This document shows positions 18,207 through 34,754 of a stretch of 56,834 nt of DNA, piece after piece. The DNA lies in NCBI GenBank assembly GCA_016783825.1, contig JADHVV010000005.1, positions 1 through 56,834 of the forward strand, in the 5' to 3' direction. The notes under the pieces are model-generated. The model saw nothing but the letters and a program-made list of their open reading frames with translations, was not told where the DNA came from and searched no databases. Made by a program: the position numbers and the translations under genes. The stretch is from Candidatus Zhuqueibacterota bacterium. Lineage in GTDB: Bacteria > Zhuqueibacterota > Zhuqueibacteria > Thermofontimicrobiales > Thermofontimicrobiaceae. Position 1 is the first letter of the stretch; each line of letters opens with the position of its first letter.

Positions 18207-19880
18207 CTACCGCATCGTACCCAAATATTCAGTGGTTAACTGTCGTTTCCTCACATCTGGATTACTATAATCAGGAAGCAGCATCGGGCCAACCTTGTCT
18301 TTGATTCCAGCGCCTTCAACTTCTTTATTAAATTTTTTAACATGATCCAACGACAAGTTCCCATTCCCAGCAAATCCTTTAATATATTCAGCAGCATTTA
18401 TGCCTGCAATTCTGCCGAATACAGTTACGTCAAGCAGTGAATTTCCCATCAAACGATTTTGACCATGAATTCCGCCTAAAACTTCACCAGCCATGTACAA
18501 ACCTGGGACTTTAGTTTCGCCCTTATTATTGGCTTCCATTCCCCCATTTTGATAATGAAGCGTCGGGTAAATCAACATGGGTTCTTTTGAAATATTAATT
18601 CCGTATCTCCTGAACAAAATACTTTTTCCTGGAAATTCCCTTGCTACGGTTCCTTCGCCCGATAACATATCGATCATTGGAGCATCCAACCACACACCGA
18701 ATTTTCCTGTGGGCGTTGGAACACCATTATTTCTATCTTTTGAACACTCCCGAATGATCGCCGAAGCTTCAACATCTCGCGGCTCACGCTCAAACACAAA
18801 TTGTTCGCCATGAACATTGACAATATTAGCGCCAGCGCCGCGCACTTTTTCAGTAATTAACAATCCTTCTGCCTGCTCTGGAAATACAGCGCCAGTTGGG
18901 TGATATTGTACGGTATGCAAGAAACAAACTGGCACTCCTGCACGGTAACTCATCACCAACCCATCACCTGTTGCGCCATAATGATTTGTGGTCATAAAAT
19001 CTTGAATGTGAAGTCTGCCAGTGCCGCCAGTCGCCATAATAACTGCTTTTGCTTTAATGATAAAATATTCTTCAGTTTCCAGATTATACATCACAGCGCC
19101 AACACATCTGCCACTGTCATCCAATAATAATTCCACGGCTGGTGAGAATTCAACAACTTTTATATCTTCAGGATGATTGCGCACTTCATCCCGAACTGTA
19201 CGCATAATTTCAGCGCCAGTAATGTCACCAGCATAATGCATTCTTTTACGTGATGTACCACCACCATGCATAGAATGAAGTTTTCCATCAGGATATTTAC
19301 TGAAAATCATTCCCAATTTTTCTAACCATTGCAAAGCTTTAGGGGCTTCAGTAACTAAAGTATAAACCAACTCTGGATCATTAACAAAATGTCCGCCGCC
19401 CAATACATCGAGGTAATGATAATATGGAGAATCTTTCCATGTTTTGCTTGCGCCTTGTATTCCGCCTTCTGCCATCATTGTATTAGCATCACCGTTGCGC
19501 AGCTTTGTCGCTAAAATAACTTTTGCACCGTTTTCCCTGGCAAGAAGAGCTGCCGAATTACCTGCGCCTCCCCCTCCGATAACCAGTACATCTGTCTCCA
19601 TGGCAACTTTTGAAAGATCAATTTTATCAGGATCGACCCTGCTTTTCGTTTCTAAAATATATGCATATTCCTGTGCAATGGCATATCCTTTACTGGCGCC
19701 GACTTTTAATTCTTTCCGGGTTCCAGCAATGAAATCAGGATGGTATTTTTTTAATATGTCCTGTCTTTTATCAACAGGAATACCAGTAAACTCTTCACCT
19801 TTCTTTTTTCTTTCGACTCGAGCGGGACGAGTTTCTTCAACTTTTTTGATTAAATTTTTTAATTCTGGTGTATATGGCAT
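18207..19880 (-). CDS. Fumarate reductase/succinate dehydrogenase-family flavoprotein (TfrA-like, non-covalent FAD)
   Basis: VIGGGGAG, AEGG, QYHPT, TEKVRG, PRD, HYQNGG, NRLMGNSL; no His before AEGG. Confidence 0.9.
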   Translation of the reverse strand: MPYTPELKNLIKKVEETRPARVERKKKGEEFTGIPVDKRQDILKKYHPDFIAGTRKELKVGASKGYAIAQEYAYILETKSRVDPDKIDLSKVAMETDVLVIGGGGAGNSAALLARENGAKVILATKLRNGDANTMMAEGGIQGASKTWKDSPYYHYLDVLGGGHFVNDPELVYTLVTEAPKALQWLEKLGMIFSKYPDGKLHSMHGGGTSRKRMHYAGDITGAEIMRTVRDEVRNHPEDIKVVEFSPAVELLLDDSGRCVGAVMYNLETEEYFIIKAKAVIMATGGTGRLHIQDFMTTNHYGATGDGLVMSYRAGVPVCFLHTVQYHPTGAVFPEQAEGLLITEKVRGAGANIVNVHGEQFVFEREPRDVEASAIIRECSKDRNNGVPTPTGKFGVWLDAPMIDMLSGEGTVAREFPGKSILFRRYGINISKEPMLIYPTLHYQNGGMEANNKGETKVPGLYMAGEVLGGIHGQNRLMGNSLLDVTVFGRIAGINAAEYIKGFAGNGNLSLDHVKKFNKEVEGAGIKDKVGPMLLPDYSNPDVRKRQLTTEYLGTMR

Positions 19881-19954
19881 TCTAATACCTCACGGGTTTT
19901 TATTACCACTAAATTCGTTTTTTTATTAATAATTTCTATTGTCTTTAAGCAAAA

Positions 19955-20060
19955 GTTTGAAGTGCCTAAATTGCCTAAAGTGCACTAAAGTACTTTTCTA
20001 TTATTAACTTTAGACTTGTACTTTAGTGCACTTTAAACTTTAGAGCACTTTAGATCACTT
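19955..20060. repeat. Tandem-unit palindrome (GAAGTGCCTAAAG family)
   Basis: Second copy at about 22638-22713. Confidence 0.7.
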
Positions 20061-20063
20061 GTA

Positions 20064-20810
20064 TCATAAATATTTTTTTTCATCAGGTTCCCACATTTCA
20101 TCTACATTATCCGGTTCCGGTTGTCTCTTAATATACAATTCTCTCAATTGATCTTTATCCATTCCCATTAAATCTTTGAGCATGGACTCATAACGACCTT
20201 CTTCAACCTGTTGCACCCGTTCTTCTAAATGTTCAGATTTTGGAAGCACATGGCGTCCATAAATTCGTCGTGCCATAATTCCAATATTATATTGAACTTC
20301 TTCAGCAGGACAACGGGCAGAACATAATCCGCACATCACACAATCAAAAGACATTTCAGCCGCTTCTTTTATATTACCTGCCATCGCCATTGCCACATAA
20401 TCCATCACTTTTATATCCATGGGACAGCTCAACGTACAATTATTACATCCCATACATTTGAAAATCTCTGGATAATAATCGGAAATAACACTTTCAGTTG
20501 GTTCTAATTTTTCCAAATCATAAGTCGCCTTATTTCCTGGAAAAAAGGGGATTTGGGTAATATACATATTTGATTCGACCACTGTCTGACAGGCAAGTCC
20601 GTAATATAATTTAGAATCATTGGGAAAGCGATAAATTGTTCCACAAGCGCCACAAATTCCACCACGACAACCACAGCCCCGGATAAGCTGGTAACCAGCA
20701 TATTCTGTTGCTTTTTGAATTGTCAGGGAATCAGGAACATCGTATCGTTTTCCCATTAAAAATATTGGAATTAAATTTCTTTTAGTTTCTTTGTCATTTG
20801 ATTTCTTCAT
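20064..20810 (-). CDS. Fe-S subunit (FrdB/TfrB-like: 2Fe-2S plus 2x[4Fe-4S])
   Basis: CRGGICGAC...C; CMGCNNCTLSCP; CVMCGLCSARCP. Confidence 0.9.
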   Translation of the reverse strand: MKKSNDKETKRNLIPIFLMGKRYDVPDSLTIQKATEYAGYQLIRGCGCRGGICGACGTIYRFPNDSKLYYGLACQTVVESNMYITQIPFFPGNKATYDLEKLEPTESVISDYYPEIFKCMGCNNCTLSCPMDIKVMDYVAMAMAGNIKEAAEMSFDCVMCGLCSARCPAEEVQYNIGIMARRIYGRHVLPKSEHLEERVQQVEEGRYESMLKDLMGMDKDQLRELYIKRQPEPDNVDEMWEPDEKKYL

Positions 20811-20825
20811 TTACACCCTCCTGAA

Positions 20826-20952
20826 TTCTGGATACTTGCTACTGGATGCTTGATTCTGGATACTGGAAGCCCGATTCAAGATGCTGGATGGAATTGGTAA
20901 AGCAAGTATCGAGCATCAAGAAACAAGCATCGAGTATCCAGCATCAAGTATC
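20826..20952. repeat. Tandem-unit palindrome (CTGGATAC/GTATCCAG family)
   Basis: Second partial copy at about 28970-29025. Confidence 0.7.
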
Positions 20953-21022
20953 TTTTCTCCAAATGAAAGTAATATTTAATAATAAGCTTAAAAAGAACTA
21001 CATTATTTAAAAACTTATCAAG

Positions 21023-21505
21023 TTACCACGTAACAAAAACACCGATAATAATTCCTAAAATAACAGCAACAAGCATCATAAAATAGTTATCAAGCGCTCT
21101 TGCTTTTTTTGATTGGGGAATAACCTCAACAACTCGATCTTCAACAATATAATCTTTGATCCCTGTATCAACCTGGGGGCATGCCATTACACAAGCATAA
21201 CATTGCTCGCAATCTTCCGCCACAATTGCCTCTAAAGCAAAAGATGTCCGCTGTACAGTGCGCGCTCGTCGGTCAGGTTCTCTGCGTAATACAGGACAGG
21301 AATCAACACAATTGCCGCAACCGATACAAGCGCGATCACCATCAATCCCCAAACCGTCTGGTAAATAAAGTCTGTGGTACGGTTCGATACCAGTCGAAAG
21401 CAATCTGCAACGGGCAACTGGCGGCTCTTTAATGTCCAAAATTGAATTTAGTACATTTATTTTTTGGGGAGTTAAAAATTCTTCTTTCCTGGTTATATAC
21501 TCCAC
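21023..21505 (-). CDS. Membrane-anchored 2x[4Fe-4S] ferredoxin-like protein
   Basis: CIGCGNCVDSCP, CEQCYACVMACP, hydrophobic C-terminal helix. Confidence 0.85.
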   Translation of the reverse strand: MEYITRKEEFLTPQKINVLNSILDIKEPPVARCRLLSTGIEPYHRLYLPDGLGIDGDRACIGCGNCVDSCPVLRREPDRRARTVQRTSFALEAIVAEDCEQCYACVMACPQVDTGIKDYIVEDRVVEVIPQSKKARALDNYFMMLVAVILGIIIGVFVTW

Positions 21506-21531
21506 AATTTACTCCTTACACTAAATTTTGT

Positions 21532-21688: not shown

Positions 21689-21701
21689 TAAATTTTGTTT
21701 T

Positions 21702-22598
21702 CTAATCAACATTCAGTTGTATATTCGGATGACACTTGACACAATTTTCTGTATTAGTCAAATCTTCACATTCAGCCTTAAAAATTTGAAACTTGCCATG
21801 AATTTTTCCATGATGACATTTTTGACATGTTTCTTTAGACGGAAATTTCATATCATTGCCCGGGTGTGTTGTCGGCAGGGCATCTTCATGGCAGCCAGCA
21901 CAGCTAATTGGATTGCGCGCTGTATAATTTACTGTTTTATCAACAACATTTTTACCTATCTCATCCTTTTTAGATTGAATATGACAGGTCTCGCAATTTC
22001 CTATTCTAATTTTTTCCAGTAGTGTAAATTCTTCCTGTTCATCTTTATTCAAATTATCCTTAACTCGAAGCTGCTTCCAACGTTGTTCATCTTCCGCCCT
22101 GAAATGTTCAAATCGATAATGAATGTTATGGTCATATCTTAAACCGATGTCTTTAACTTGAAGCGGTAAATTCGGTTCATCGACTTCAGCCAAACTTAAA
22201 ATTTCAGGGTGGCAGCTAATACATTCTTCATCCTGGTAAATATTTTGAGAATCAACGCTTTCTTTTACACGAAGATTGGCAACACGTTGAGAATACTTTG
22301 GCACTTTTTTTAGACTTCTTATTAAAAGCATTTCCACAGCTTTATCGGGATGGCAGGAAACGCAAGTAGGTCCACCTTTATTGATATCTTTATGGGCAGG
22401 GATGCGCATATCTAACGAGACATAAGTGCCTTGATTTTTGTGGCATTTCTGGCAAAAAGTTTCAGACTGATTATATAACACCATTCCGCTAAATACAACA
22501 ATCCCGCCGATTGGCGCAATAATTAACACCAGCATAATGTGCCGTTTTATAATGAAATTTTTAACTTTCTCAAAAATTTCTTTTCTGTTGATTTGCAT
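21702..22598 (-). CDS. Membrane-anchored heptaheme cytochrome c
   Basis: N-terminal TM helix; seven CxxCH motifs (CQKCH, CVSCH, CISCH, CETCH, CAGCH, CQKCH, CVKCH). Confidence 0.9.
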   Translation of the reverse strand: MQINRKEIFEKVKNFIIKRHIMLVLIIAPIGGIVVFSGMVLYNQSETFCQKCHKNQGTYVSLDMRIPAHKDINKGGPTCVSCHPDKAVEMLLIRSLKKVPKYSQRVANLRVKESVDSQNIYQDEECISCHPEILSLAEVDEPNLPLQVKDIGLRYDHNIHYRFEHFRAEDEQRWKQLRVKDNLNKDEQEEFTLLEKIRIGNCETCHIQSKKDEIGKNVVDKTVNYTARNPISCAGCHEDALPTTHPGNDMKFPSKETCQKCHHGKIHGKFQIFKAECEDLTNTENCVKCHPNIQLNVD

Positions 22599-22711
22599 AA
22601 TTTATTTTAATTCCTAGATTACGGTGTACTTATGACAGAAGTTTGAAGTGCCAAAAGTGCCTAAAGTGAGATAAAGAAATAATTCTTTAGGCACTTCAAA
22701 CTTTAGGCACT

Positions 22712-24934
22712 TTAGCTCACTTTATTAACTTTAACTTTTACATCCTTCCACGCCTGCCCTTTGCCCGATGGGTCGATAGAAACTGGAATAACAAAATTGG
22801 GATTAGTGCCGTTGCCATCCTTTTCCCACCAGATAAATTCTGTATCCGGGTCTTCACTTTTAAACTTTTTCGATTGAGCAATTCTTCCGTATTCCCAATG
22901 TCCCAATCCTTTGGAAATGGCAATCGCTCCCGGATAAATACCCTGTGTAATGTGCGCTTTGATAACAATTTTTCCAATTTCAGATTCCAACATTACATAG
23001 TCGCCCTCTGCAATTCTCAATCGTCGGGCAGTTTTGGCATTTATTAAAGCTTTATTAGTATGATTGATTTCAGCCAACCATTTTAAATTGGTCAAATCCT
23101 GACGCATCACATTTGTGCTGTACGAAATTAAAAAAAGTTCATTTTTAGAAACGTTAATATGTTCCGTAATTGGTTCATATTTCGGCAAACCATTTGACCC
23201 GGCAATTTCAAATTTTCTTGAGCGAGTAGCGAATCGCTGTTTTTTATAAAGCTCATATTCTGGATTGGCATTTTTATCGTACCAGATACCCTGTTTTTTC
23301 AATTTATTAAATTGTTTCTCATCAGATAAACCAGGTATTTGGGCAACTGATTGTTTAATAAAATCTTCGACACTTTCATAATTCATCGAATTGCTAATGC
23401 TCTCCCCCATTCTCCGCGACAATTTAAGAAAAACATCATTAAGGGATAAAGCTTGCCCGTGCGGTTTTATTACTGGTTGCGCCAGCGAAACAAAGGGAAC
23501 CATTTCAAAGGATGGCGTTGAATCCAAATCCCAGCTTTCTACAAAAGTCGCTGCTGGAAGAATCAAATCTGCCAGCGCCGCTGTTTCACTTTTTACGGTA
23601 TCCATCACCACAGTAAACGGCATCAGGCTTTCGTCTTTCATCACTTGCTGGGTGAAATTGCAGTCCGGATATTCATAAACAGGATTATTTTTATAAGCGA
23701 AATATAAATCGACCTTTTGTTTTTCTTTCTTAATCCTCTCGAAAAATTGGACGGTTGACGGTTCGTTTTCATTAATTTCTATTGGAGAAAAATCGTTTAA
23801 CTGATAAGTTCGGGCAAGGCAGACACCGCCTTTTTTATCAATATTTCCCACCAGCGCATTGAGCAGCATAATGCTCCGTTCAGTCTCAAAACCGTTAACG
23901 TGCTGGGCAACACCTGAGCCTGAAAAAGCAACGGCGGGTCTGTTAGCGGCAAACTCGATGGCAATTCGTTCGATAGTGGCTGCGTCGATGGCGCTGATTT
24001 TTGCCGCTTTTTCGATAGTGTATTGAGACAGGTGCGACTTCAGTTGGGAAATAGGAATGTTTGTCCAGCGGCTGATAAATTCAGCGTCATATAAACCTTT
24101 CTGCACGATAACATTCGCCATTGCCAGCGCCACAATACCATCAGTTCCGGGTTTTATTGGAATCCACTCATCACTTTTACCGGCGGTATTGGATAACAGC
24201 GGGTCCATGGTAATCAATTTTGCATAATTATTTATTCTTGCTTCAGCCAGGCGTTGATTAAAACTTACAAAATAGGAATGGGACTCAAACGGATTGCTGC
24301 CGAAATTTAGAAAATATCTACAATTTTCAGCATCGATTATTTCTCTTTCTTCGCCCCAAATTGATTTTTGAGCAGTAGTTTTATTTAAGTCATTTAAAGC
24401 AGATGAGTTTAATATTGTCGCATTTTCAAAATTATTCAAAAACCTGCGCGCTAAACCGCGGTAATTTTGAGTATCAGTATGAAAGACAAATTCATGGTTA
24501 CGGTTTTCATTATTAATCGTTTGCAGGCGGTTGGAAATTTCAGTTAATGCTTGTTCCCAGCTAATTTTTTTCCATTTTCCCTCTCCCCGAGCTCCAACAC
24601 GTTTCAGTGGATGAAGCAATCTATCCGGGTCATAAACCTGGTTTACGCCGGCAATTCCCCGCGCACAAATTTTACCCTGGTTATTAATATGGTGGGGATT
24701 CCCTTGAATAGCCGCTAAATCTTCATATCTTAAAAAACCAATTACGCCGCATCTGTTTGGACAAAGATTACAAATTGTTGGAATGCCTTTACGAAACTTG
24801 CTGGTAAACATTGATACATTTCTGCCCCGCATGCCAACAATGGGAATCACTCCTCCAAACGAAGCTCCGAACGAGATTGCGGTTGCGCCTAATGTTCCTA
24901 TTTTTAAAAATTTTCGACGATTTATTTCTTTCAT
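22712..24934 (-). CDS. Tat-exported molybdopterin oxidoreductase (PsrA/TtrA/ArrA-like, DMSO reductase family)
   Basis: NRRKFLK; CNLCPNRC...C; YDPDRL..PLKR; PGTDG; SETA..AD.ILP. Confidence 0.9.
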   Translation of the reverse strand: MKEINRRKFLKIGTLGATAISFGASFGGVIPIVGMRGRNVSMFTSKFRKGIPTICNLCPNRCGVIGFLRYEDLAAIQGNPHHINNQGKICARGIAGVNQVYDPDRLLHPLKRVGARGEGKWKKISWEQALTEISNRLQTINNENRNHEFVFHTDTQNYRGLARRFLNNFENATILNSSALNDLNKTTAQKSIWGEEREIIDAENCRYFLNFGSNPFESHSYFVSFNQRLAEARINNYAKLITMDPLLSNTAGKSDEWIPIKPGTDGIVALAMANVIVQKGLYDAEFISRWTNIPISQLKSHLSQYTIEKAAKISAIDAATIERIAIEFAANRPAVAFSGSGVAQHVNGFETERSIMLLNALVGNIDKKGGVCLARTYQLNDFSPIEINENEPSTVQFFERIKKEKQKVDLYFAYKNNPVYEYPDCNFTQQVMKDESLMPFTVVMDTVKSETAALADLILPAATFVESWDLDSTPSFEMVPFVSLAQPVIKPHGQALSLNDVFLKLSRRMGESISNSMNYESVEDFIKQSVAQIPGLSDEKQFNKLKKQGIWYDKNANPEYELYKKQRFATRSRKFEIAGSNGLPKYEPITEHINVSKNELFLISYSTNVMRQDLTNLKWLAEINHTNKALINAKTARRLRIAEGDYVMLESEIGKIVIKAHITQGIYPGAIAISKGLGHWEYGRIAQSKKFKSEDPDTEFIWWEKDGNGTNPNFVIPVSIDPSGKGQAWKDVKVKVNKVS

Positions 24935-24946: not shown

Positions 24947-25843
24947 TTAAATTATCGGCAACGCCTGTCCACCATAAACTACAACAAATCTCATAAATAA
25001 AATTCCCACAACCACCAATGCGGAAGCGATAGCTATATTTCTAATAGACCTGAGTTTAGGCGTGAGTACAATTATCATCGGTACAAATTTACCAAAGAAA
25101 TTTTCAACTCCTAAAAACAAAGGACTCAATTCCCCGGCTATGAGTAGATGTGTCGTTTCTTTTGCTTCTGCATGAGATACGGATAAAGTAGAAATATCAC
25201 AAAAAACCAACACCAAATCAAAAACAATCAACCAGCCTAACATACTGGCAAGAGTATAAATAATTTCTTTATTAATTATTTTCTCTTTAGAGAAAAATTT
25301 ATCTTTTATCATTAAAATTAGTATCATTACAGCGATACCGGACACAATGGCTGAAACCAAAAATAAGAACGGCATTAATGCTGTATTCCATAAGGCGCGG
25401 GCTTTACCGAATGCAAGAATAAACCCGGTATAGCCGTGAACGGTAATCGCCAGTGGGATGCCAATCATACCGAACATTTTAGTTTTTTTCATATCACCTT
25501 TAAACATGAAGTAGCCGTAAATCATACAATTTACCGGGTACGCCATTAATAAAAAAGCGCCGTAGGACATTGGAGAATGAAAATTTAAAAAAGTAAAATG
25601 GTTCCATACTGAACGAACGGGCCAGCCCACCTGAAGAAGAAGCATTACTGGAGCAATAAATAAAAGCAGTGTCGCCATAACAACGCCGACTTTACCGGCT
25701 GGTTTAAACTTCTCCAACCCAAAGCCATAAGCCAGTGTTGAAATAACAAATGAACCAGCGCTCATGCCGGTAAAATAAAAATATAACGCGATTAACCATC
25801 TAAAAGTAACCTGGTGATGAACATCGTAAACCAGTTCTGTCAT
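24947..25843 (-). CDS. NrfD/PsrC-family membrane anchor
   Basis: W.IALYFYFTG.SAG, SPMSYG, YTGF...R.LW, RF.VV.GGQ. Confidence 0.9.
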   Translation of the reverse strand: MTELVYDVHHQVTFRWLIALYFYFTGMSAGSFVISTLAYGFGLEKFKPAGKVGVVMATLLLFIAPVMLLLQVGWPVRSVWNHFTFLNFHSPMSYGAFLLMAYPVNCMIYGYFMFKGDMKKTKMFGMIGIPLAITVHGYTGFILAFGKARALWNTALMPFLFLVSAIVSGIAVMILILMIKDKFFSKEKIINKEIIYTLASMLGWLIVFDLVLVFCDISTLSVSHAEAKETTHLLIAGELSPLFLGVENFFGKFVPMIIVLTPKLRSIRNIAIASALVVVGILFMRFVVVYGGQALPII

Positions 25844-26734: not shown

Positions 26735-27312
26735 CTAACCTTCCGCTAATGCCCTTTCTCGCTTTTTCTCTTTTATCCCAAATAATGCAATAGAAATAAT
26801 AAAAATTGCCACAAAGACTCGAAGACACCAAGAATCACAAAGATAAACAGAGTTCATTTTTTTAAAATTATAGGACAAAAAAGTGAAAAAATCTTATTTA
26901 TAAATGATTTTTAAATTCTTTAAAAATCAACCCTTTGAGTCTTGGAGTCTTCGTGGCTATTGCATTATCTGGGTTTATGAAATATGCATTAGCCGCTGCC
27001 GCGATACTCGGTCCTGAATCACCTACTGGACATTTTCCCGCACAGCGAGAACAAGCCACACAAAATTTTGAAAGATATTTTACTTTTTCATAATCTCCCA
27101 ATCGTGCAGCCAAAATCATTGTCATGGGATAGGGTTCACCATCAACGACTTTTATGGGACAAACACCAACGCAGGTCTGGCAATTGTAACAATTTAACGC
27201 CTGACCAGTACCTTTCACCAATACAGGCTGCAATGTATAATCAAATACCAACTCAATACAGAAAAGAATTGCCAATGCATTGAATGTTGGCAGATCAAGT
27301 CTGAATTTTGAA
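26735..27312 (-). pseudogene. 3' remnant of a diverged allele of the 27974-28948 gene, interrupted by a MITE
   Basis: 26979-27312 matches about 28016-28350 mostly at synonymous sites; removing the MITE restores NAYF-IKEKKRERALAEG* versus NAYF-KKEKQRKKDLADV*. Confidence 0.85.
26777..26973. mobile_element. MITE, CCCA(A/G)ATAATGCAATAG TIRs, 5-bp TSD
   Basis: TTTAT duplicated on both flanks; sister element at 45600-45812. Confidence 0.85.
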
Positions 27313-27367
27313 ATAACACAAATTGTGTGTTGCAGTTTGTACATTCCACACCAACGAATTGTTAGCC
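27311..27367 (-). mobile_element. attC-like integron recombination site (57 bp)
   Basis: GGCTAAC-AATTC-GTT(G)GTGTG...CACAC-AAT-TTGT-GTTA: R'', L'' with an extra base, L', R'; directly after the toxin stop codon. Confidence 0.65.
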
Positions 27368-27382
27368 CAATTTTTCAATATT

Positions 27383-27679
27383 CTAAAATTTTCTATGCTT
27401 CCAATACCCTGATCTTCGGCTTAAATGCATAAGAGCAAATAACCGGATTTTATTCTTTTCGTTTCGAAATATGATTGCGAAAGGAAAGCGATGTATAAGA
27501 AAACGCCGACAACCTTCACAATAGAGCGACCATGTATTTGGAAACTTTCGAATGAGATCAATTGCACGATCAACTTCATCCAGGAATTCGATTCCCAATC
27601 TTTTTGCCTGATTTTCGTACCATGCCCTGGATTGCTCTAATTCTTTATAAACTTCAGGATGTACTTCAACCTGTAACAA
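27383..27679 (-). CDS. RelE/ParE-family toxin
   Basis: HPE...EL.....WYE.Q...LG.EF, RFPFAI, A.MH..R...YW. Confidence 0.9.
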   Translation of the reverse strand: MLQVEVHPEVYKELEQSRAWYENQAKRLGIEFLDEVDRAIDLIRKFPNTWSLYCEGCRRFLIHRFPFAIIFRNEKNKIRLFALMHLSRRSGYWKHRKF

Positions 27680-27917
27680 CGCTATTTCTCCGAAGTCTTT
27701 CCCGTACTACTTCCCATGGAAGGCAGTCCACAATTCCATTATCAACTTCCTTAATTCGGTTGCTAATTTCATTTTGCCATGCAATTTCTACATTTAAATC
27801 TGCTTCTGTATCCAGGCTGGAGATGAGCCGTTCTGCGATGAAAGCACGATCTTTTGGTTTTGTCTGCAAAGCTTGTGTTAATATTTTCTCTACAGCCTTT
27901 TCCATTTTTTTCTCCAT
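27666..27917 (-). CDS. Addiction module antitoxin
   Basis: R..IAE.L..SLD...W..EI..R......G......W..V. Confidence 0.88.
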   Translation of the reverse strand: MEKKMEKAVEKILTQALQTKPKDRAFIAERLISSLDTEADLNVEIAWQNEISNRIKEVDNGIVDCLPWEVVRERLRRNSVVTG

Positions 27918-27973
27918 TTATATTTTTTTTGACTTACATTGTTTAAACTATCTAACTTCACTCAATATCCAAA

Positions 27974-28948
27974 TTAAACATCAGCCAAATCTTTCTTCCT
28001 CTGTTTTTCCTTCTTAAAATAAGCATTTGCCTGCGCCGCAATGCTGGGCCCCGAATCCCCAACCGGACATTTCCCGGCACAGCGAGAACAAGCTACACAA
28101 AATTTTGATAAATATTTTACCTTTTCATAATCTCCCAACCTGGCTGCCAGAATCATTGTCATGGGATAGGGTTCGCCATCAACAATTTTAATGGGACAAA
28201 CACCAACGCAGGTCTGGCAGTTGTAGCAATTTAACGCCTGACCGGTTCCTTTCACCAGTACAGGCTGCATTGTATAATCAAATACCAACACAATACAGAA
28301 AAGAATTGCCAATGCATTAAATGTTGGTAGATCAAGTTTGAATTTTGAAAAATAGTGCATCACTTTTGTAAATGAAGAATATTCGGGTTTTTCAGGAACA
28401 CCTTCCCACAGTGCATAACTCACTGCTTCAAGAAAACCGCTTGTGGCTTCAATTGAACCGTGAGTTGTCGAAGGGATAAGATCAGCAGCTAATGAATTTT
28501 GTACAATAATCTGCTCTTCCAAATCATCAAGAGCTGTTATCATTTCCTGGTGCTGCAGAACTTTAATGTTCAATATTTTGTGATCTTCAATTTCAACTTT
28601 GACTTTGATGGGACCACGCAATCCCTGACCAGTTCCCTCATAAGTACCATCCAAAACTAATTCAAGATCAAGCGGTGAATGATCGAGTATGTAGCTGCTT
28701 ACCCGATTATAATCAATAATAAAATAAACGCCTGAAATCAAAAGCAAGACAATTAATGGAATTATAATCCCAAAATATGATTTTTTTTCAACAAATAATA
28801 CTTTAATCGCGCTGATAAACAGGACGATTCCTAAAACTGAAAAAAGAATCAACCTGCCGTAAACAAAAGCAAGCGCAAATATAATCAACAAAATTGTTAA
28901 TCGCCAGGGACGTAAAATTAGGTTTTGTAGCTGTAATTTTATTTTCAA
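27974..28948 (-). CDS. Membrane protein with FMN-binding domain and HdrC-like 2x[4Fe-4S] domain
   Basis: Three TM helices, DGTYEGTGQGLRGPIKVKV, a further TM helix, CYNCQTCVGVCP, CVACSRCAGKCP. Confidence 0.85.
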   Translation of the reverse strand: MKIKLQLQNLILRPWRLTILLIIFALAFVYGRLILFSVLGIVLFISAIKVLFVEKKSYFGIIIPLIVLLLISGVYFIIDYNRVSSYILDHSPLDLELVLDGTYEGTGQGLRGPIKVKVEIEDHKILNIKVLQHQEMITALDDLEEQIIVQNSLAADLIPSTTHGSIEATSGFLEAVSYALWEGVPEKPEYSSFTKVMHYFSKFKLDLPTFNALAILFCIVLVFDYTMQPVLVKGTGQALNCYNCQTCVGVCPIKIVDGEPYPMTMILAARLGDYEKVKYLSKFCVACSRCAGKCPVGDSGPSIAAQANAYFKKEKQRKKDLADV

Positions 28949-29060
28949 ATTTAATACCTTTTAAAAAAACGATGCTTGATTCTGGATACTTGTTTCTGGA
29001 TATTTTTTACCCGCATCGAGTATCTATGAAATTAATGAAATTTTGACAAAGTAGATACAA

Positions 29061-29375
29061 TTATAAGCTTCTTCTTTTAAGATTTTTTACTATCCAGGCA
29101 GGATCGCGCCGCATTGGTAAAACAGCAACAACCCTTGCAATATCACCTTTGACTTCATAATAAATTGAATATGGGAACCGCTTGGATATCATCCGATGGT
29201 AACCTGATTTTTTAATATGAATTCCAGCAAAAAGATAGAGTGATTCAATATCTGCCATCAAACTATCCCAAAAATAATCCCCTAAACCAGGAGTTCGTCT
29301 ATCGTAAAAGGCTTTGCCATCGTTTAAATCTTCGGACACTTCATATAGAGTAATAATACCTCTTATCCTGATCAT
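29061..29375 (-). CDS. RelE/ParE-family toxin
   Basis: DL..G..FY....GLGDYF...L..DI, KRFPYSIYY, AVL..RRDP. Confidence 0.85.
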   Translation of the reverse strand: MIRIRGIITLYEVSEDLNDGKAFYDRRTPGLGDYFWDSLMADIESLYLFAGIHIKKSGYHRMISKRFPYSIYYEVKGDIARVVAVLPMRRDPAWIVKNLKRRSL

Positions 29376-29575
29376 TTACGACTCGCCTTCAACTCGTCAA
29401 GTGAAATAAATTTTGCTTCATCATTATTGATGTTCTCCATACGTTCCCGGAGAACATCTTCATGCCATGCAGGAGATTCTATTTTGGATTCATCTTCTAA
29501 CAAAGAATCCCAAAGCATTTCCATAGCTTGCAGGCGTTCAGTAAAATTCATTCTTTTTATTTCTGAAGCCGTCAT
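29372..29575 (-). CDS. Addiction module antitoxin
   Basis: E.LQAME.LWDSL.....SP.WH..VL.ER. Confidence 0.88.
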   Translation of the reverse strand: MTASEIKRMNFTERLQAMEMLWDSLLEDESKIESPAWHEDVLRERMENINNDEAKFISLDELKASRK

Positions 29576-29602
29576 TTTATGTCCTTTTATTACCTTGTTT
29601 GA

Positions 29603-30148
29603 TTATGTTAAAAACGCAGCCACATCATCAATAAAATCTTTATTAATTAACCCTTTTTCAAAAGCATTTTGAATCATGCGTTTGGGAATTTTTCCTTGTT
29701 TCAAAGCTTTCATGGTTTGAAGCTGCATGGTGCCAAAAATTTGGGCAAGATTCAAATATTGTACACAGAAACTCTGGCACGAGCCGCAACGAATGCATCG
29801 CAAACCACCATTTTTCAAAAAGCGATCGTAATCACTGACACGAGCTGCTACTACCAACTCTGCCTGAAATGCAATCCCAACAGGACACTTATCCTGTGTG
29901 CCGTAACAAGCACGGCATTCGTAACAATAGATAGTCTGCGGATTTTTATTAACGACAGCTTTTCCAACATCAACCGCCAAAACAGCAGCAATCCCAAACA
30001 TCGCTGTCCGATTTAGATTTTTGGTTAAAGCACGATCATCAACGTTAGTGAAAAATTGGAAGCGTCGAATGCCAGGCATAACAATTGGTTGATCTTCGTC
30101 GCTGCGGACACCGATTTTTGTTTTTTTATTTTCTTCTTTTTCTTTCAT
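29603..30148 (-). CDS. HdrC-like Fe-S protein
   Basis: CYECRAC....CP and CIRCGSCQSFC. Confidence 0.75.
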   Translation of the reverse strand: MKEKEENKKTKIGVRSDEDQPIVMPGIRRFQFFTNVDDRALTKNLNRTAMFGIAAVLAVDVGKAVVNKNPQTIYCYECRACYGTQDKCPVGIAFQAELVVAARVSDYDRFLKNGGLRCIRCGSCQSFCVQYLNLAQIFGTMQLQTMKALKQGKIPKRMIQNAFEKGLINKDFIDDVAAFLT

Positions 30149-30197: not shown

Positions 30198-30686
30198 TTA
30201 ATTCTCATTGGCAATTTCTAAAATTCGTGAATACAATTTTTCACTAATCCAGAAACCTGCTCTCTTTTTTAAATCATCCAACAATGGTTTAATATTACCT
30301 ACCATACCATTAGATTTTGCATCTATTAATAAACCTAATAATCCAACATATTTTAGATTAAATCGCGAGGCGACTTTACGACCAATTTTTTCATCAATTA
30401 ACAATAAATCTGCATTCAACTCTTTTGCAAGTGCGATTGCTTCGGCTTCACCATCGTCTAATTCAAGTTGAAATGCTTTTACTAATGACTTATTTGATAC
30501 TTTTTTTGTAGTTATCCAATCATATTTTCTAACTTCATTCGCGCCAGGTTGTCCAGCTCCAATTATAACTATTTCATGATACACAGCTTCTGCAATAATG
30601 ATATTCCCAAAGAGCTTGTGTAGTATATCAAGTCTATCTATAGCTGCAAGATTTATTATTGGAGATGTATTACTCACAATTATCAC
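30198..30686 (-). CDS. DUF3368 PIN-domain toxin-like protein
   Basis: VSNTSPII.L, LDDGEAEAIALA, LLIDE..GR. Confidence 0.9.
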   Translation of the reverse strand: MIIVSNTSPIINLAAIDRLDILHKLFGNIIIAEAVYHEIVIIGAGQPGANEVRKYDWITTKKVSNKSLVKAFQLELDDGEAEAIALAKELNADLLLIDEKIGRKVASRFNLKYVGLLGLLIDAKSNGMVGNIKPLLDDLKKRAGFWISEKLYSRILEIANEN

Positions 30687-30928
30687 AGTCGCCCAAGCTC
30701 CTTTAATGTCGCTATATCATCCTTTAAATCATTTTCATCATAATGCAAAGGAATTTGACGAGCTGAAATAAGATGTTGAAATTGAAATTGACTCACATCA
30801 GCCAACCGACTGGCTTGTCCTAATGTTAATTTCTCTTTTTGAAAAAGCATTATGGCTATTTCTTGAGTCAATTCTGGAATTGTCATTCGAGTAGATTGAA
30901 TTATTTCATCGGGAATAGTTAAACTCAT
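30683..30928 (-). CDS. UPF0175-family antitoxin-like protein
   Basis: EIAI.LFQ..KLTLGQASRLA....FQ.......IP.HYD. Confidence 0.9.
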   Translation of the reverse strand: MSLTIPDEIIQSTRMTIPELTQEIAIMLFQKEKLTLGQASRLADVSQFQFQHLISARQIPLHYDENDLKDDIATLKELGRL

Positions 30929-30953: not shown

Positions 30954-31006
30954 ACTGCCACTGCTACTTTTTGAATGGTACTGATAAATTTATTTAAAAA
31001 CTTTTG
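30954..31006. repeat. 53-bp direct repeat, copy 2
   Basis: Matches 18037-18089. Confidence 0.8.
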
Positions 31007-31037
31007 CCAAAAAAACTAAAATTGAACTGACAACAGA

Positions 31038-31190: not shown

Positions 31191-31206
31191 AAATAAATTC
31201 CTTCTA

Positions 31207-32898
31207 TTATGCTGTTTTTCTCACTACTGAAAGTGTTTTGGGAATCATTACCCCAATTAAAAATGCCGCAAAAACACCACCGACGAATCCCTGGATAATT
31301 TCAAGATATTGCAATTCGTAAACTGCAAAAGCGAGCACTGCACCGGCAATTCCACCACTGAATAAAAAATAGATCAACTGCAGCCGCCAATTTTTTTTAT
31401 TGTTATTGGAGACCATTTTGCTCATAAGTGACATCATCCCAATTGATACACCGATAATGACAAATGTGTATAAAATTATAGTAACTATATTTTGTGAAAA
31501 TTCAGGGTTATTGGGAGAAAAAACTGTAAAATTCATAAATTTCATATAAAGTGCTGCCAGTGGCGCCATAATTGCCATCGAAGTATAAGTATAGGCGCCT
31601 TTGATGAATCCTGATTCTGCCCGCATTTGTCCTTCTCCCATCGTGCCACCACCGCCAAGTGGTGATGGACCGCAGGATGTTGTTGCATTAATCATGTAAG
31701 CAGCCATCACAATCGCTAATTGAGGCCAGGTCAGCAAATTAAATTTTGCCGGACCAAAAAGGTACAAAACAGGAACCAATGCTGCCGTTAAAATTCGAGA
31801 ACAGGAAAGCGGTAAAATCGTTTGCATTTGGACAAAGATAGCTAACATTCCTGCGACGCCAAGGATTTGTATGGTGGAAAGACTTTTCAGAAGCACCCCA
31901 AGTGCATCAAAACCGCCAGTGGCTGCCAGCGCACCTGCTGCCATAAATCCCGAAGCCATTGCCGTAACAGGCAGCAGAATAATCCCGTTCATCAAATCCT
32001 GAATTTTAGCCTGACAAAAAATAATAATAAAAATTCCGCCTGCTACGAGTATGGTTTGTACTGGCATCGCTTTTCCAAAAGGTTGAAAAATCGCAATCAT
32101 TAATGATGCGACAAAGATGAAAAGCGATAAATATCCTCGGAACGGAGCGGTTACTTTTGGCAAAGTAATCTTATCGGTCTCTTCTGAATTTTCTGGTTTG
32201 TCACGTAAGGTCACATCATCAGGATATAATTTTTCAGAAATGAATTTTATAAAAAGGGCGGTTACAGCAGTTCCTATCATCAGAGCAAACGCCTGGGGAG
32301 ATCGCAAAATTCCATCGCTGGCAGTTGGGAAAAACGCGCCGAGAAATCCTTCGCCAATTTGCCCCACGCCGCCGATGGGAGATGGACCGCATGAACCCAT
32401 TGCATTACGTGTAAAAGCTGCAATGAGAACCACAAGTTGAGTTTTTGTTAAAATGCCCATTCCGCCTTCATAACCAAACGAGAATAATAAAGGCAGAAGC
32501 GCAGCAGCGATAATTCTTCCACATGGCAATGAAGCGATCACAGGCAAATTTATGAGTATCACCACAGTCCCTGCTAATCCGATGGGCGACTTTTTTAATT
32601 TATCGATGATAACTTTCAGCGCATCAAATCCCTGTGTGGCATCAAGCGCGCCCGCTAAAAACAATCCTCCCAACAGCGCCGTAATCGGATGTAAGATGAT
32701 CCCTCCGATCATCTCATTGGGTAGCAGTACAGCGCTGTTAAATCCTTCCGTCATAAACCTGAAAATAGCGCCGATGATTAAACACACAAAACTCACTAAT
32801 ACAAGAACAGTCTGAACTGGTAGATTTATTTTCCTGAACAAAGTCAGGACCATGGTTACAATAAAAATCGTTAAAGTAATATATCCTAAATATTCCAC
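31207..32898 (-). CDS. Polytopic membrane protein with internal duplication (transporter-like)
   Basis: Highly hydrophobic; repeated AGAL.AT.GFDAL, L.C.RI..AAL.P and SCGPSP.GG.G..GEG. Confidence 0.75.
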   Translation of the reverse strand: MEYLGYITLTIFIVTMVLTLFRKINLPVQTVLVLVSFVCLIIGAIFRFMTEGFNSAVLLPNEMIGGIILHPITALLGGLFLAGALDATQGFDALKVIIDKLKKSPIGLAGTVVILINLPVIASLPCGRIIAAALLPLLFSFGYEGGMGILTKTQLVVLIAAFTRNAMGSCGPSPIGGVGQIGEGFLGAFFPTASDGILRSPQAFALMIGTAVTALFIKFISEKLYPDDVTLRDKPENSEETDKITLPKVTAPFRGYLSLFIFVASLMIAIFQPFGKAMPVQTILVAGGIFIIIFCQAKIQDLMNGIILLPVTAMASGFMAAGALAATGGFDALGVLLKSLSTIQILGVAGMLAIFVQMQTILPLSCSRILTAALVPVLYLFGPAKFNLLTWPQLAIVMAAYMINATTSCGPSPLGGGGTMGEGQMRAESGFIKGAYTYTSMAIMAPLAALYMKFMNFTVFSPNNPEFSQNIVTIILYTFVIIGVSIGMMSLMSKMVSNNNKKNWRLQLIYFLFSGGIAGAVLAFAVYELQYLEIIQGFVGGVFAAFLIGVMIPKTLSVVRKTA

Positions 32899-32970
32899 CT
32901 ATTCCTCTTTTCGTTATAAAAGAATTGCCACGAAGACACGAAGTTCAATAACTTAATCTTACGAATCAAT

Positions 32971-33092
32971 GTCATTCCGGCAATCCTGTACAGTTACATT
33001 ATAAAAAAAAACAAGGAAATACAGACTGTGCTTTTAGCCGGAATCTCTTGTATTTATTAAGGAGATTCCCGCTAAAAACATGCGGGAATGAC
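32971..33092. repeat. REP-like GTCATTCC...GGAATGAC element with a 47-bp insert in its first loop
   Basis: Insert 32985-33031 is an inverted copy of 18132-18175. Confidence 0.75.
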
Positions 33093-33126
33093 AGCCGTAG
33101 TGTGACACTCATTCGGTGTACGATGC

Positions 33127-33453
33127 CTAAATATTTTTACAAGCAGAAATTTTTCTTTTCAACCTGAACGGTAAATTTATTTGATATTTCCCTTTCGCAT
33201 AAATAAGATAAACTTCATCGCCAACATTAAAATCACCAAGACACACCGTGCACTTAAACGCTTCAGCATCTACCTCTCTGCCATCTGTCAATCTTACCTT
33301 CATTTGTCCTGAAATCGAATTTTCAATTCCCAAAAGTGATGGATAAATATAAACAACTTCACCCTTGATGTAATGGCGAGCCCGATATATTTCCACCGCA
33401 ATAAAAAATATAATCAAAGCAATAAATGTATAAAATACAATTAGGTCATGCAT
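33127..33453 (-). CDS. Small membrane-anchored protein with CxxC
   Basis: N-terminal TM helix, CTVC, co-directional in the cluster. Confidence 0.65.
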   Translation of the reverse strand: MHDLIVFYTFIALIIFFIAVEIYRARHYIKGEVVYIYPSLLGIENSISGQMKVRLTDGREVDAEAFKCTVCLGDFNVGDEVYLIYAKGKYQINLPFRLKRKISACKNI

Positions 33454-33484
33454 CAGGAGTATTTTTCCCTTTGTTAAAATTTTA

Positions 33485-33653
33485 GTAACTGTTCAGTTGT
33501 TGGTGAATAAATGTCATTCTGAACGAGGGATGTGATTGGGGATGATGGGAAGTGAAGAATCTCACAGTATACTAGAAAATGTAGAATAATTGTGGAGATT
33601 CTTCGGTCGCAAGCTCCCTCAGAATGACATTTAAGACCACGCTGAACAGTTAT
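33485..33653. mobile_element. MITE with 8-bp TSD carrying a REP-like palindrome
   Basis: GTAACTGTTCAG / CTGAACAGTTAT; AAATTTTA on both flanks; inner element 33513-33628. Confidence 0.75.
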
Positions 33654-33782
33654 AAATTTTATTTATTTTGAAGGAGTATTGGATTAATGGAGTTTTGCAT
33701 ATTAAAATCTCACTCTATTCACAATACTCCAATAATCCATCACTCTATTTCTCCCCGCCAAAAAAATTAGATTTTATAAAAG

Positions 33783-34754
33783 TTATGATTCCCACTTTGT
33801 GATTAAAACTTGTTTTAATTCTGCATCAACAATATAGAATGTATTTTCTGAATTAATTTGAAGAGTCGTGGGCTTTTTCAATCCATCTGTCTTTGCACTG
33901 ATGAATTTTCCATCAGGACTAAATTTTTGAATACGGCTGTTTAAAGAATCGCAGACATAAATATTTTGTTTTGTATCGATCGCTATTCCTTCAGGCGTAT
34001 TGAATTGTCCATCACTGCTACCCAGTTCACCAAATCTGAATAAAAATCGTCCTTCCGAATCCAGCACTTTCACCTGACCATGTTTGCTGTCAACGACATA
34101 AATTTTCCCATCATTTGATGTAACAACATCTGTTGGCAGCCGAAAATGGTAATCCAAACTTCCTTCAAACAAATCTTTCGGATCATCACCCAGATCACCA
34201 TACTTTGCAATTAAACGAAACGTGTTTTTTTCATAAACTGCAATGAAATGGTTTCGGGTATTGCAGACATAGATTTTATCCGTAATATGAATCCCTTTTG
34301 GCGTGTAAAAAGCATCAGGATATCCGCCTATTTTTCCAAACGAAGTTTTGTAATTTCCATCAAGATCGTAAATGGAAACTCTGCCATTATTTGAATCCAT
34401 CACGTATATCAAACCGTTTTCATCAATACCCAATCCCTGGGGATAATTAAAAGCTCCTTCCCTGCTGCCTGGCTTGCCAATAGATTTTAAAAGCGTGCCA
34501 TTGCGATCAAATATTTTCAAACAATATCCTGCCGCATCGGAAACATAAATTCGACCATCGGCGCCAAGTGCAACACCGTAGGGCTCTTTAAAATCGATTA
34601 TATTTTTTGCGGTAATATTTGAATTGGATTGACTGAATATAGATTTGGTGAAAGTAAAGCTAACGGCTGATGCAGCGCTTACAGCGATGCTTTTTTTCAG
34701 GAATTGTCTTCGCGATAAAGTTTTCTTCGGGGAAACTTCTGTATTTTTTTTCAT
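33783..34754 (-). CDS. Tat-exported NHL-repeat beta-propeller protein
   Basis: SRRQFLK; repeated F..P.G...D..G.IYV.D..N.R. Confidence 0.9.
   Translation of the reverse strand: MKKNTEVSPKKTLSRRQFLKKSIAVSAASAVSFTFTKSIFSQSNSNITAKNIIDFKEPYGVALGADGRIYVSDAAGYCLKIFDRNGTLLKSIGKPGSREGAFNYPQGLGIDENGLIYVMDSNNGRVSIYDLDGNYKTSFGKIGGYPDAFYTPKGIHITDKIYVCNTRNHFIAVYEKNTFRLIAKYGDLGDDPKDLFEGSLDYHFRLPTDVVTSNDGKIYVVDSKHGQVKVLDSEGRFLFRFGELGSSDGQFNTPEGIAIDTKQNIYVCDSLNSRIQKFSPDGKFISAKTDGLKKPTTLQINSENTFYIVDAELKQVLITKWES

Follow-up and report, generated by a model that had tools for sequence, protein, structure and literature searches.

How could a fumarate reductase be supplied with electrons where the usual membrane anchors are missing? 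The question is raised by a gene cluster at positions 18207-34754 (minus strand) of contig JADHVV010000005.1 from a Candidatus Zhuqueibacterota bacterium (candidate division KSB1; assembly GCA_016783825.1), of which a stretch of 56,834 nucleotides, here called the window, was analysed. In textbooks, fumarate respiration rests on complex II, which is anchored by SdhC/D. In this cluster, it is proposed, a widespread AB-type fumarate reductase is attached to a different membrane apparatus, the centre of which is a protein family without a name or a Pfam model. The cluster is real, conserved and uncharacterised, and we see an even chance that its twelve conserved genes encode one modular membrane-bound respiratory complex, which would connect the reduction of fumarate in the cytoplasm with the periplasm or the quinone pool by electron transfer; assembly into one complex, fumarate as the substrate and a direction from quinol or periplasm to fumarate are what we infer.

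No description of this gene combination was found in the literature searched, a scope with most subscription journals outside it, which agrees with a preliminary description of the locus, made from the sequence alone, that had not recognised the combination as a described complex. The main text of a study on Zhuqueibacterota (PMC11683472) holds nothing on fumarate, succinate, polysulfide, thiosulfate, heterodisulfide or molybdopterin; its supplementary gene tables, outside the scope of the search, may list the genes. The combination matches no described respiratory complex; its building blocks are known, and a membrane protein of 563 amino acids (aa) is possibly a new kind of carrier. Even on a plain reading, the cluster offers a testable model of energy conservation for KSB1, Desulfomonilaceae and Syntrophales of anoxic sediments, and its hosts are uncultured marine sediment bacteria.

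The gene cluster and its conservation

Between 18207 and 34754 there are 18 open reading frames (ORFs), all on the minus strand, and 12 of them form the conserved set; the remainder are three toxin-antitoxin (TA) pairs and a 148-aa duplicate fragment (26898-27344). The preliminary description had counted eleven co-directional genes: the shared direction holds, the number is corrected to 12, and the inserted TA pairs and the duplicate had gone unmentioned. In order of transcription, the conserved genes are:

33783-34754, minus strand: NHL-repeat beta-propeller with a twin-arginine translocation (Tat) signal, 323 aa, predicted periplasmic (Pfam NHL 1.3e-34), the first gene of the set
33127-33453, minus strand: small 108-aa protein with one N-terminal hydrophobic segment (residues 4-22) and a conserved CxxC (alignment, n = 9)
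31207-32898, minus strand: internally duplicated 563-aa membrane protein with a DASS/ion-transporter fold and four invariant Cys
29603-30148, minus strand: HdrC/RnfC-type two-cluster iron-sulfur (Fe-S) protein, 181 aa, predicted cytoplasmic
27974-28948, minus strand: 324-aa membrane protein with an FMN_bind-like domain and an HdrC-like two-cluster Fe-S domain
25840-26430, minus strand: PsrB/TtrB/DsrO-type four-cluster Fe-S subunit, 196 aa (Pfam Fer4_11 2.8e-23)
24947-25843, minus strand: NrfD/PsrC-type integral membrane subunit, 298 aa (Pfam NrfD 7.8e-44)
22712-24934, minus strand: subunit of the molybdenum (Mo)-bis(pyranopterin guanine dinucleotide) family with a Tat signal, Psr/Phs-like, 740 aa (Pfam Molybdopterin 4.7e-40)
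21702-22598, minus strand: membrane-anchored heptahaem c-type cytochrome, 298 aa (7 CxxCH; Pfam Cytochrom_NNT 3e-7)
21023-21505, minus strand: tail-anchored two-cluster ferredoxin, 160 aa (Pfam Fer4_10 3.3e-10)
20064-20810, minus strand: Fe-S subunit resembling SdhB/FrdB and the N-terminal part of TfrB, 248 aa (Pfam Fer2 22 bits, Fer4_9 5.9e-9)
18207-19880, minus strand: TfrA-like flavoprotein, 557 aa (Pfam FAD_binding_2 2e-75 over residues 97-482)

The flavoprotein was found in 20 of 41 related genomes at 76-87% identity (18 full-length copies, two partial). These genomes are metagenome-assembled genomes (MAGs) of Candidatus Zhuqueibacterota and of 'uncultured Cytophagia', and the surroundings of the copies, up to 20 kb each, gave 14 loci of relatives that were compared by tblastn. 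The same 12 genes stand in the same order in eight of the 14, only the Fe-S/flavoprotein pair is present in five, and one is too short to tell. The eight colinear loci belong to two families of one order and are spaced much more tightly than the window (e.g. 2-206 bp in L019). At E ≤ 1e-100, the 563-aa protein was found in 13 of 151 sampled genomes of the phylum, all 13 of them in the same two families.

Copies of the 563-aa protein that are 66-70% identical occur in MAGs of Desulfomonilaceae, Syntrophales and other Thermodesulfobacteriota, and the long form of the protein was located at 76 genome loci, every one in a MAG from an uncultured organism. A Desulfomonilaceae MAG (G041) carries the same twelve genes, with the PsrB-NrfD-Mo block downstream of the flavoprotein and not before the cytochrome. 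That the whole set has been kept in different phyla, although rearranged, is the chief reason to think that its modules function together, and the gene-neighbourhood comparison proposed with the preliminary description thus showed a set conserved as a unit, in one order in KSB1 and in another in Desulfomonilaceae. A Syntrophales contig (L033) has the core order without the Psr-like block and ends inside the flavoprotein gene. A Syntrophales version of the cluster lacking this block was considered and dropped, because the contig ends in that gene and the block lies downstream of it in the Desulfomonilaceae MAG.

The NHL-protein orthologue stands first in the eight colinear loci and in the Desulfomonilaceae MAG, and the position of the 108-aa gene is conserved in these same loci. 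The TAT_signal match of the NHL protein is weak (18.5 bits against a cut-off of 22.7), with an RRxFLK motif visible by eye, and a Pfam search of the 108-aa protein at E ≤ 0.01 returned no family.

The flavoprotein and its Fe-S partner

The flavoprotein matches the PDB entries 1NEK (E. coli SdhA), 1KF6 and 7D6V at E-values of 1e-53 to 1e-67. Aligned to 1NEK, it is identical at the HPTG His, the Thr-Glu, the catalytic Arg, the second His and the second Arg, and has Asn at the His that binds flavin adenine dinucleotide (FAD) covalently, which we take to be His45; Asn likewise stands against the corresponding His of 7D6V. The alignment therefore upholds the earlier observation of a flavoprotein that keeps the dicarboxylate-site His/Arg residues without the covalent-FAD His. 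Non-covalent FAD and fumarate reductase activity are predicted from these residues. In Sdh/Frd enzymes, non-covalent FAD speaks against succinate oxidation, and it is counted below against reverse flow.

Among NCBIfam models, TfrA scores best (345.5 bits; cut-off 718), followed by sdhA_frdA_Gneg (286.4; cut-off 567.3), NadB (279.5) and fum_red_Fp (222.9; cut-off 932.7). At its N-terminus the protein is extended by 95 aa, which the orthologues share (matches span residues 1-557), and it has a short C-terminus, in which Pfam detects no Succ_DH_flav_C domain. Its family comprises at least 7999 proteins at E ≤ 1e-50, which is every candidate scored, and no second SdhA/FrdA/NadB-like gene was found with the flavoprotein as query in the window's 82.8%-complete assembly.

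The 248-aa partner combines a plant-type 2Fe-2S motif with two CxxCxxCxxxCP motifs; Pfam finds no CCG domain in it, and TfrB gives only 30.7 bits against a cut-off of 385. Its gene adjoins the flavoprotein gene in all 13 loci long enough to show it. No Pfam or NCBIfam match to SdhC/D, or to a CCG-type SdhE anchor, was obtained among the 18 ORFs, so that the absence of SdhC/D noted earlier stands. In the five pair-only loci, the pair adjoins HdrC, an HdrB/SdhE-like CCG protein, HdrA and MvhD (all below curated cut-offs), and the flavoproteins there are close orthologues, 76-78% identical. Since the pair stands beside HdrABC-MvhD in five other relatives, it is a modular AB-type fumarate reductase.

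In the parts of two papers drawn on here, AB-type enzymes are soluble fumarate reductases with exchangeable electron-input modules, and examples are the five-subunit NADH enzyme of Hydrogenobacter (FrdABCDE) and the tfrAB of a tubeworm symbiont (Endoriftia), which lies among flxABCD-hdrABC (PMC13147460, PMC6315080). With these and with TfrAB, the present pair shares TfrA as best model, a partner with 2Fe-2S and 4Fe-4S motifs, the absence of SdhC/D and a variable partner module. However, the TfrA score is below its cut-off, the flavoprotein has the long extension and short C-terminus described above, the Fe-S subunit is without CCG, and in place of a soluble NADH or Hdr module the pair would have a membrane complex as its partner. 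Compared with FrdABCD/SdhABCD, the A and B subunits are homologous and all substrate-site residues are kept, whereas Asn replaces the covalent-FAD His, an SdhC/D or SdhE-type anchor is absent, the third cluster motif is of the 4Fe-4S type and the scores remain below the cut-offs.

A membrane protein with four invariant cysteines

The 563-aa protein matches no Pfam family even at E ≤ 1 and no NCBIfam family. It has 365 homologues in a set of 5.8 billion proteins, for which the source name is 'hypothetical protein' in every case among the 120 listed, and forms 75 clusters in a collection of 1.84 billion representatives. When nine full-length members with identities down to 26% are aligned, only 30 columns are invariant, and four of these are Cys (C126, C170, C366 and C409), two per repeat. 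In the AlphaFold2 model (predicted local distance difference test, pLDDT, 84.5; predicted template modelling score, pTM, 0.86) each of these Cys lies in a helix-break-helix element, and there are three extra C-terminal helices. The duplicated, Cys-containing, transporter-like protein of the preliminary description is thus well founded, as regards both the internal duplication and the conserved Cys.

By Foldseek, the fold is that of VcINDY, NaDC3, NaS1 and ArsB (probability 1.0, template modelling (TM) score 0.45-0.64), and the ESM Atlas agrees (TM 0.59-0.64, by query). The protein therefore shares with the DASS/ion transporters VcINDY, NaDC3 and ArsB the fold, the two-repeat architecture and the helix-break-helix elements, but has no match to their Pfam families (Na_sulph_symp, CitMHS, ArsB), and its family profile hits 0 chains among PDB sequences at E ≤ 10; the three C-terminal helices are a further difference. 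In DASS proteins, Ser-Asn-Thr (SNT) motifs form the substrate/Na+ site at the hairpin tips. When the profile was aligned by hhalign to seven DASS genes of relatives, C126 and C366 fell at the Ser of both SNT motifs, in a weak alignment (404 columns, probability 11.4%, E 0.0026).

Distant relatives of the protein were collected from 41 loci, which include Altiarchaeota, Thermoplasmatota, Halobacteriota, Undinarchaeota, Spirochaetota, Acidobacteria and Planctomycetota. A match to the HdrC-like domain of the 324-aa or 181-aa protein is present in 26 of the 41 (a count made without a control set), and a match to the flavoprotein in none. Among 52 neighbours from ten of these loci, Pfam identified Fer4-type proteins in nine loci, HdrB-like CCG proteins in four and Fer4_5 membrane polyferredoxins in four. 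With relatives beside HdrC/HdrB-like proteins and never beside the flavoprotein, the 563-aa protein appears to follow Fe-S proteins and not a particular substrate enzyme. The Planctomycetota locus combines the membrane protein with a 181-aa-like protein fused to cytochrome b561, an FMN_bind and Fer4 protein and a 160-aa-like protein, and several archaeal loci encode the two repeats in separate genes that lie side by side.

These distributions bear on one alternative, which we regard as unlikely: that the 563-aa protein functions as a secondary transporter, of the DASS/ion-transporter type, and imports or exchanges a dicarboxylate or a sulfur-containing anion for the cytoplasmic flavoprotein to reduce, with the Fe-S proteins only delivering electrons. 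The DASS/ArsB fold found by Foldseek and in the Atlas fits such a role, and the gene shares an operon with an enzyme that bears a dicarboxylate site. However, both SNT motifs are replaced by Cys-containing motifs in the weak profile alignment (hhalign probability 11%), the four Cys are invariant even at 26% identity, the distant relatives keep company with HdrC/HdrB-like Fe-S proteins (26/41) and not with the flavoprotein (0/41), and the flavoprotein pair occurs without the 563-aa protein, beside HdrABC-MvhD, in five loci. The unknown imported substrate of the preliminary description is disfavoured likewise: the fumarate/succinate site is complete, import of fumarate is unnecessary, and the 563-aa protein tracks Fe-S proteins rather than the flavoprotein.

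A bolder proposal, possible but on balance doubtful, is that the 563-aa protein represents a new class of transmembrane electron carrier. The substrate-binding hairpin tips of the DASS fold would have become a four-Cys site in mid-membrane, which houses an Fe-S cluster or a pair of redox-active thiols and relays electrons between periplasmic haems, with the FMN_bind-like domain, and cytoplasmic HdrC-type clusters. Functionally it would correspond to NqrD/E and RnfA/E without being homologous to them, and bacteria and archaea would use it to link HdrBC-like enzymes and fumarate reductase with the cell exterior, possibly with an elevator-type motion of the cofactor. If it is true that the four-Cys protein carries electrons, this would be a new transmembrane electron route without haem b or quinone loops, and it would also explain the HdrBC-linked clusters in Altiarchaeota, Thermoplasmatota, Halobacteriota and others.

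The nearest functional analogy would be NqrD/E. In NQR, according to the portion of the source used here, four Cys of NqrD/E hold an intramembrane 2Fe-2S cluster and electrons cross the membrane to the flavin mononucleotide (FMN) of NqrC (PMC10643135). The 563-aa protein shares with NqrD/E and RnfA/E an inverted duplication with four conserved Cys at the centre, here divided between two adjacent half-genes in some archaeal MAGs, and, as with NqrC/RnfG, the membrane unit adjoins a gene for a protein with a periplasmic FMN_bind-fold domain. The likeness is one of architecture only; there is no Pfam Rnf-Nqr match, the fold is of the DASS/ion-transporter type, and the proteins are not homologous. 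A survey of flavinylation-linked systems names, in the part drawn on here, five classes of transmembrane electron transfer (NapH-like, MsrQ-like, PepSY, DsbD and RNF/NQR-like), and the 563-aa protein is not among these five (PMC8238504). Co-folding of the 563-aa and 324-aa proteins gave a score of 0.12, with the mark at 0.32.

The wider family shows further arrangements. Half-size relatives with a single repeat (P0134, P0136, P0137, P0144 and P0147) are fused to an N-terminal NosD-like right-handed beta-helix or, weakly, to CARDB. In an Altiarchaeales MAG (L041, 6089-14077) and a Methanomassiliicoccales MAG (L070, 4600-12181), the four-Cys protein is accompanied by HdrC-like, HdrB-like (CCG) and Fer4_5 polyferredoxin proteins, and these clusters also carry either a DsbD_2 membrane protein with a GXGXG protein or a GltD-like NAD(P)H oxidoreductase fusion. 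They look like uncharacterised membrane-linked Hdr systems.

The Fe-S proteins and the FMN_bind-like domain

Fer4 domains are found by Pfam in five genes and one fragment of the cluster. Hydropathy shows four segments in the protein of 27974-28948, a C-terminal one in that of 21023-21505 and one weak segment in that of 29603-30148, in line with the earlier statement that there are several Fe-S proteins, at least two of them membrane-anchored. In the 324-aa protein (27974-28948), three N-terminal segments are followed by a domain of about 125 residues, the fourth segment and then the Fe-S domain (Fer4_9 1.3e-6). The middle domain matches FMN_bind at 0.0011, with 20 bits against a cut-off of 22. 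The overall pLDDT of the model is 64, and its middle domain matches 8P2B (TM 0.80, root-mean-square deviation 1.9 Å) and also 8P2A, RnfG and NqrC.

The flavinylation motif has the consensus [S/T]GA[S/T]. The 324-aa protein of the window has Ile at the position of the flavinylated Thr, and TGAT is present in only one of 11 aligned sequences, the Planctomycetota homologue (L065), which also matches FMN_bind above the Pfam cut-off (35.2 bits). The HdrC-like/FMN membrane proteins of the preliminary description thus hold in part: the FMN_bind fold is supported by the model and the HdrC-like Fe-S domain is present, but the FMN_bind score is below the cut-off and the canonical Thr is missing. The 324-aa protein is about half the size of NosR/PceC/NapH-like proteins. 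Its layout is that given for them in the part of the survey used here, namely an extracytosolic FMN_bind-fold domain, membrane helices and cytoplasmic 4Fe-4S motifs (PMC8238504); in contrast to them, it is without PF12801 (Fer4_5), and the flavinylation motif has been lost in this clade. A polyprenyl synthetase gene and a gene for the flavin transferase ApbE lie at 49938-51920, on the opposite strand and 15 kb from the cluster, and the presence of the latter shows that flavinylation of some exported protein takes place in the organism, even though the canonical site is missing from the FMN_bind-like domain of the cluster itself.

The 181-aa protein matches Fer4_8 at 22.2 bits (below the cut-off) and the C-terminal region of rnfC at 5.3e-8, has one weakly hydrophobic segment, and is 73-83% identical in KSB1 loci, 58% in the Desulfomonilaceae MAG and 41% in the Planctomycetota MAG. 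The 160-aa ferredoxin has its hydrophobic segment at residues 142-160 and is 53.5% identical in the Planctomycetota locus.

The Psr/Qrc-like block and the heptahaem cytochrome

The three genes of this block stand in the B-C-A order of ttrBCA. The closest PDB relative of the Mo-family subunit is T. thermophilus PsrA (2VPW, 180 bits), and the motif of the FS0 cluster is kept. However, Asn aligns with the Mo ligand Cys173 of 2VPW, and across nine KSB1 sequences this position is occupied by N, E, Q, E, T, Q, K, S and Y; the Desulfomonilaceae protein has no Cys in the Mo-ligand stretch. This subunit is also the least conserved of the set, at 38-60% identity against 60-86% for the PsrB and NrfD subunits. 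The Psr-like molybdoenzyme reported earlier therefore needs qualification: the sequence is Psr-like and is accompanied by four-cluster Fe-S and NrfD subunits, but no residue is conserved at the Mo-ligand position. From its sequence, the block may be an electron-transfer/quinone (Qrc-like) module and not a catalytic reductase, and the NrfD/PsrC-type subunit is likely the quinone site.

NCBIfam scores are PhsA 340 (cut-off 694) and QrcB 225.2 (cut-off 440) for the Mo-family subunit, TtrB 211.8 (cut-off 416) and DsrO 190.7 (cut-off 200) for the PsrB-like subunit, and QrcC 135.1 (cut-off 400). The cytochrome has 7 CxxCH in the window, in all eight KSB1 orthologues and in the Desulfomonilaceae MAG, which bears out the earlier heptahaem assignment. 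Its N-terminal part is NapC/NirT/NrfH-like, with a hydrophobic segment at residues 23-41, and it matches MtrC/MtrF-type domains (1.2e-9).

The four kinds of component that make up Qrc, an anchored multihaem cytochrome c, a Mo-family subunit, a four-cluster Fe-S protein and NrfD, are all present here, and the last two are shared with Psr/Phs as well. In contrast to Qrc, Psr and Phs, the QrcB, QrcC and PhsA scores are all below the cut-offs and there is no Cys or other conserved Mo ligand. Transfer of periplasmic electrons to a cytoplasmic reductase is an idea also found for the Tmc/Hmc complexes of sulfate reducers. As further differences from this group of systems, the present cluster has no cytochrome b and no CCG protein, and its terminal enzyme is encoded in the same cluster.

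A proposed respiratory complex

By predicted topology, the Tat/Sec-exported redox proteins lie outside (Tat motifs are present on the Mo-family and NHL proteins), the Fe-S proteins and flavoprotein inside, and the FMN_bind fold between hydrophobic segments. In the complex that we favour, the outer face would consist of the Tat-exported NHL propeller, the Psr/Qrc-like module and the anchored heptahaem cytochrome, where the NrfD/Fe-S/Mo-like block and the NapC-like cytochrome would exchange electrons with the quinone pool or with periplasmic carriers. The 563-aa four-Cys protein and the 324-aa protein would take the place of the missing SdhC/D anchor and link both faces. On the inner face, an HdrC-type Fe-S chain formed by the 181-aa protein, the C-terminal domain of the 324-aa protein and the tail-anchored 160-aa ferredoxin would pass electrons to the SdhB-like subunit, and from there to the TfrA-like flavoprotein, which with its non-covalent FAD would reduce fumarate to succinate. 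The coupled reaction, with quinol oxidised outside and fumarate reduced inside, would be electrogenic. The topology fits an electron chain that joins periplasm and cytoplasm, such as the preliminary description proposed. Overall, the observations of that description are partly confirmed and its interpretation is partly supported.

Several points weigh against the proposed complex. The DASS fold of the central membrane protein is most simply read as that of a transporter. The canonical flavinylation Thr is missing in the 324-aa proteins of KSB1, Syntrophales and Desulfomonilaceae, which makes an outer-face flavin relay doubtful. All subunits score below the curated cut-offs of the NCBIfam models, so every functional name rests on resemblance. 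The Mo-like subunit might still be catalytic on a periplasmic substrate, with a non-Cys ligand or none. Moreover, three TA pairs interrupt the operon and intergenic gaps reach 467 bp. With these gaps, the earlier claim of eleven genes behind one promoter is not established; promoter-like sites in the window number 74 against 65.0 +/- 9.5 in shuffles and hence are not in excess, and a terminator scan gave a count not above that of shuffles.

The large gaps also suit a second alternative, to which we assign a low probability, namely that independent units lie side by side and share no path for electrons. They would be a periplasmic reductase of the Psr/Phs type together with its NapC-type cytochrome, a fumarate reductase in soluble form, and a membrane protein that, along with its accessory Fe-S proteins, has an unrelated function. 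In favour of this, every block looks like a known system that could function by itself, the Psr-like block changes position as a whole, and the AB pair has other partners elsewhere. Against this, the blocks stay adjacent in two phyla despite rearrangement, the Mo-like subunit is without a conserved ligand, and the neighbouring Fe-S proteins are the only donor module available to the AB pair, which itself includes no CCG, NAD(P)H or quinone subunit. Least probable, and by some way improbable, is a reverse flow or another substrate, in which the flavoprotein would oxidise succinate, L-aspartate or an unknown 2,3-saturated acid and electrons would pass by the Fe-S chain and haems to an acceptor in the periplasm or outside the cell, on which the Mo-like subunit or NHL protein would act: the NadB score is nearly as high as that for Sdh/Frd, the cytochrome matches MtrC/MtrF-type domains, and NHL propellers with multihaem cytochromes would suit outward electron transfer, but non-covalent FAD is expected from the Asn in place of His, the best family score is that of TfrA, a fumarate reductase, and the AB-type relatives are treated as fumarate reductases in the parts of the papers used here (PMC6315080, PMC13147460).

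Insertions, repeats and neighbouring genes

The ORFs that interrupt the conserved set are:

30198-30928, minus strand: TA pair of a UPF0175 antitoxin (30683-30928; Pfam 9.6e-22) and a DUF3368/PIN-like toxin (30198-30686; 2.5e-13)
29061-29575, minus strand: TA pair of an Unstab_antitox antitoxin (29372-29575; Pfam 1.6e-13) and a ParE-like toxin (29061-29375)
27383-27917, minus strand: TA pair of an Unstab_antitox antitoxin (27666-27917; Pfam 1.1e-11) and a 98-aa toxin-like ORF (27383-27679)
26898-27344, minus strand: 148-aa ORF duplicating the transmembrane and Fe-S end of the 324-aa gene (direct repeat)

Three type II TA pairs thus occupy three successive intergenic spacers of one respiratory operon, and two of the three antitoxins belong to the same Pfam family, Unstab_antitox. 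The ParE_toxin match is weak (0.0066), its ORF overlapping that of the antitoxin by 4 nucleotides (nt), and the 98-aa toxin-like ORF has no Pfam family. None of the TA proteins has a match of at least 50 bits in any of the 14 loci of relatives, which indicates that these genes are insertions in this lineage. The 148-aa duplicate sits just beyond one TA pair. The direct repeat (26980-27279 against 28017-28316) is 88% identical and covers the last 300 nt of the 324-aa gene; over 110 codons compared, there are 30 synonymous and seven non-synonymous differences. The copy was either retained under selection or acquired from a related lineage with the TA cassette. A metagenome contig from an independent study spans 26949-29647 with 0 differences, so faulty assembly of this record does not account for the insertions and the duplicate.

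The genes flanking the cluster are unrelated: those on one side serve polysaccharide synthesis, and those on the other encode a pentapeptide protein, STAS and MacB-type efflux functions. Two long ORFs, 45964-48315 (783 aa) and 9294-10610 (438 aa), match no Pfam family at E ≤ 1e-8. The DNA of the cluster is present in samples from marine and estuary sites, and among the datasets listed as containing it, none is recorded as RNA. In two runs labelled metatranscriptomic, which were flagged as 'probably DNA', short contigs are identical to pieces of several genes, and nothing is drawn from them. Finally, short intergenic repeat families occur at 22536-23102 and 32742-33875, and also at 18026-18089/30943-31006 and 19950-20035/22636-22703. 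In four metagenome runs, the summed contig depth rises to about 1000 in repeat regions, against about 13 elsewhere, and contigs jump between 19991 and 33510 at intergenic repeats, which look like a multi-copy element of the repetitive extragenic palindromic type in this population or in several organisms.

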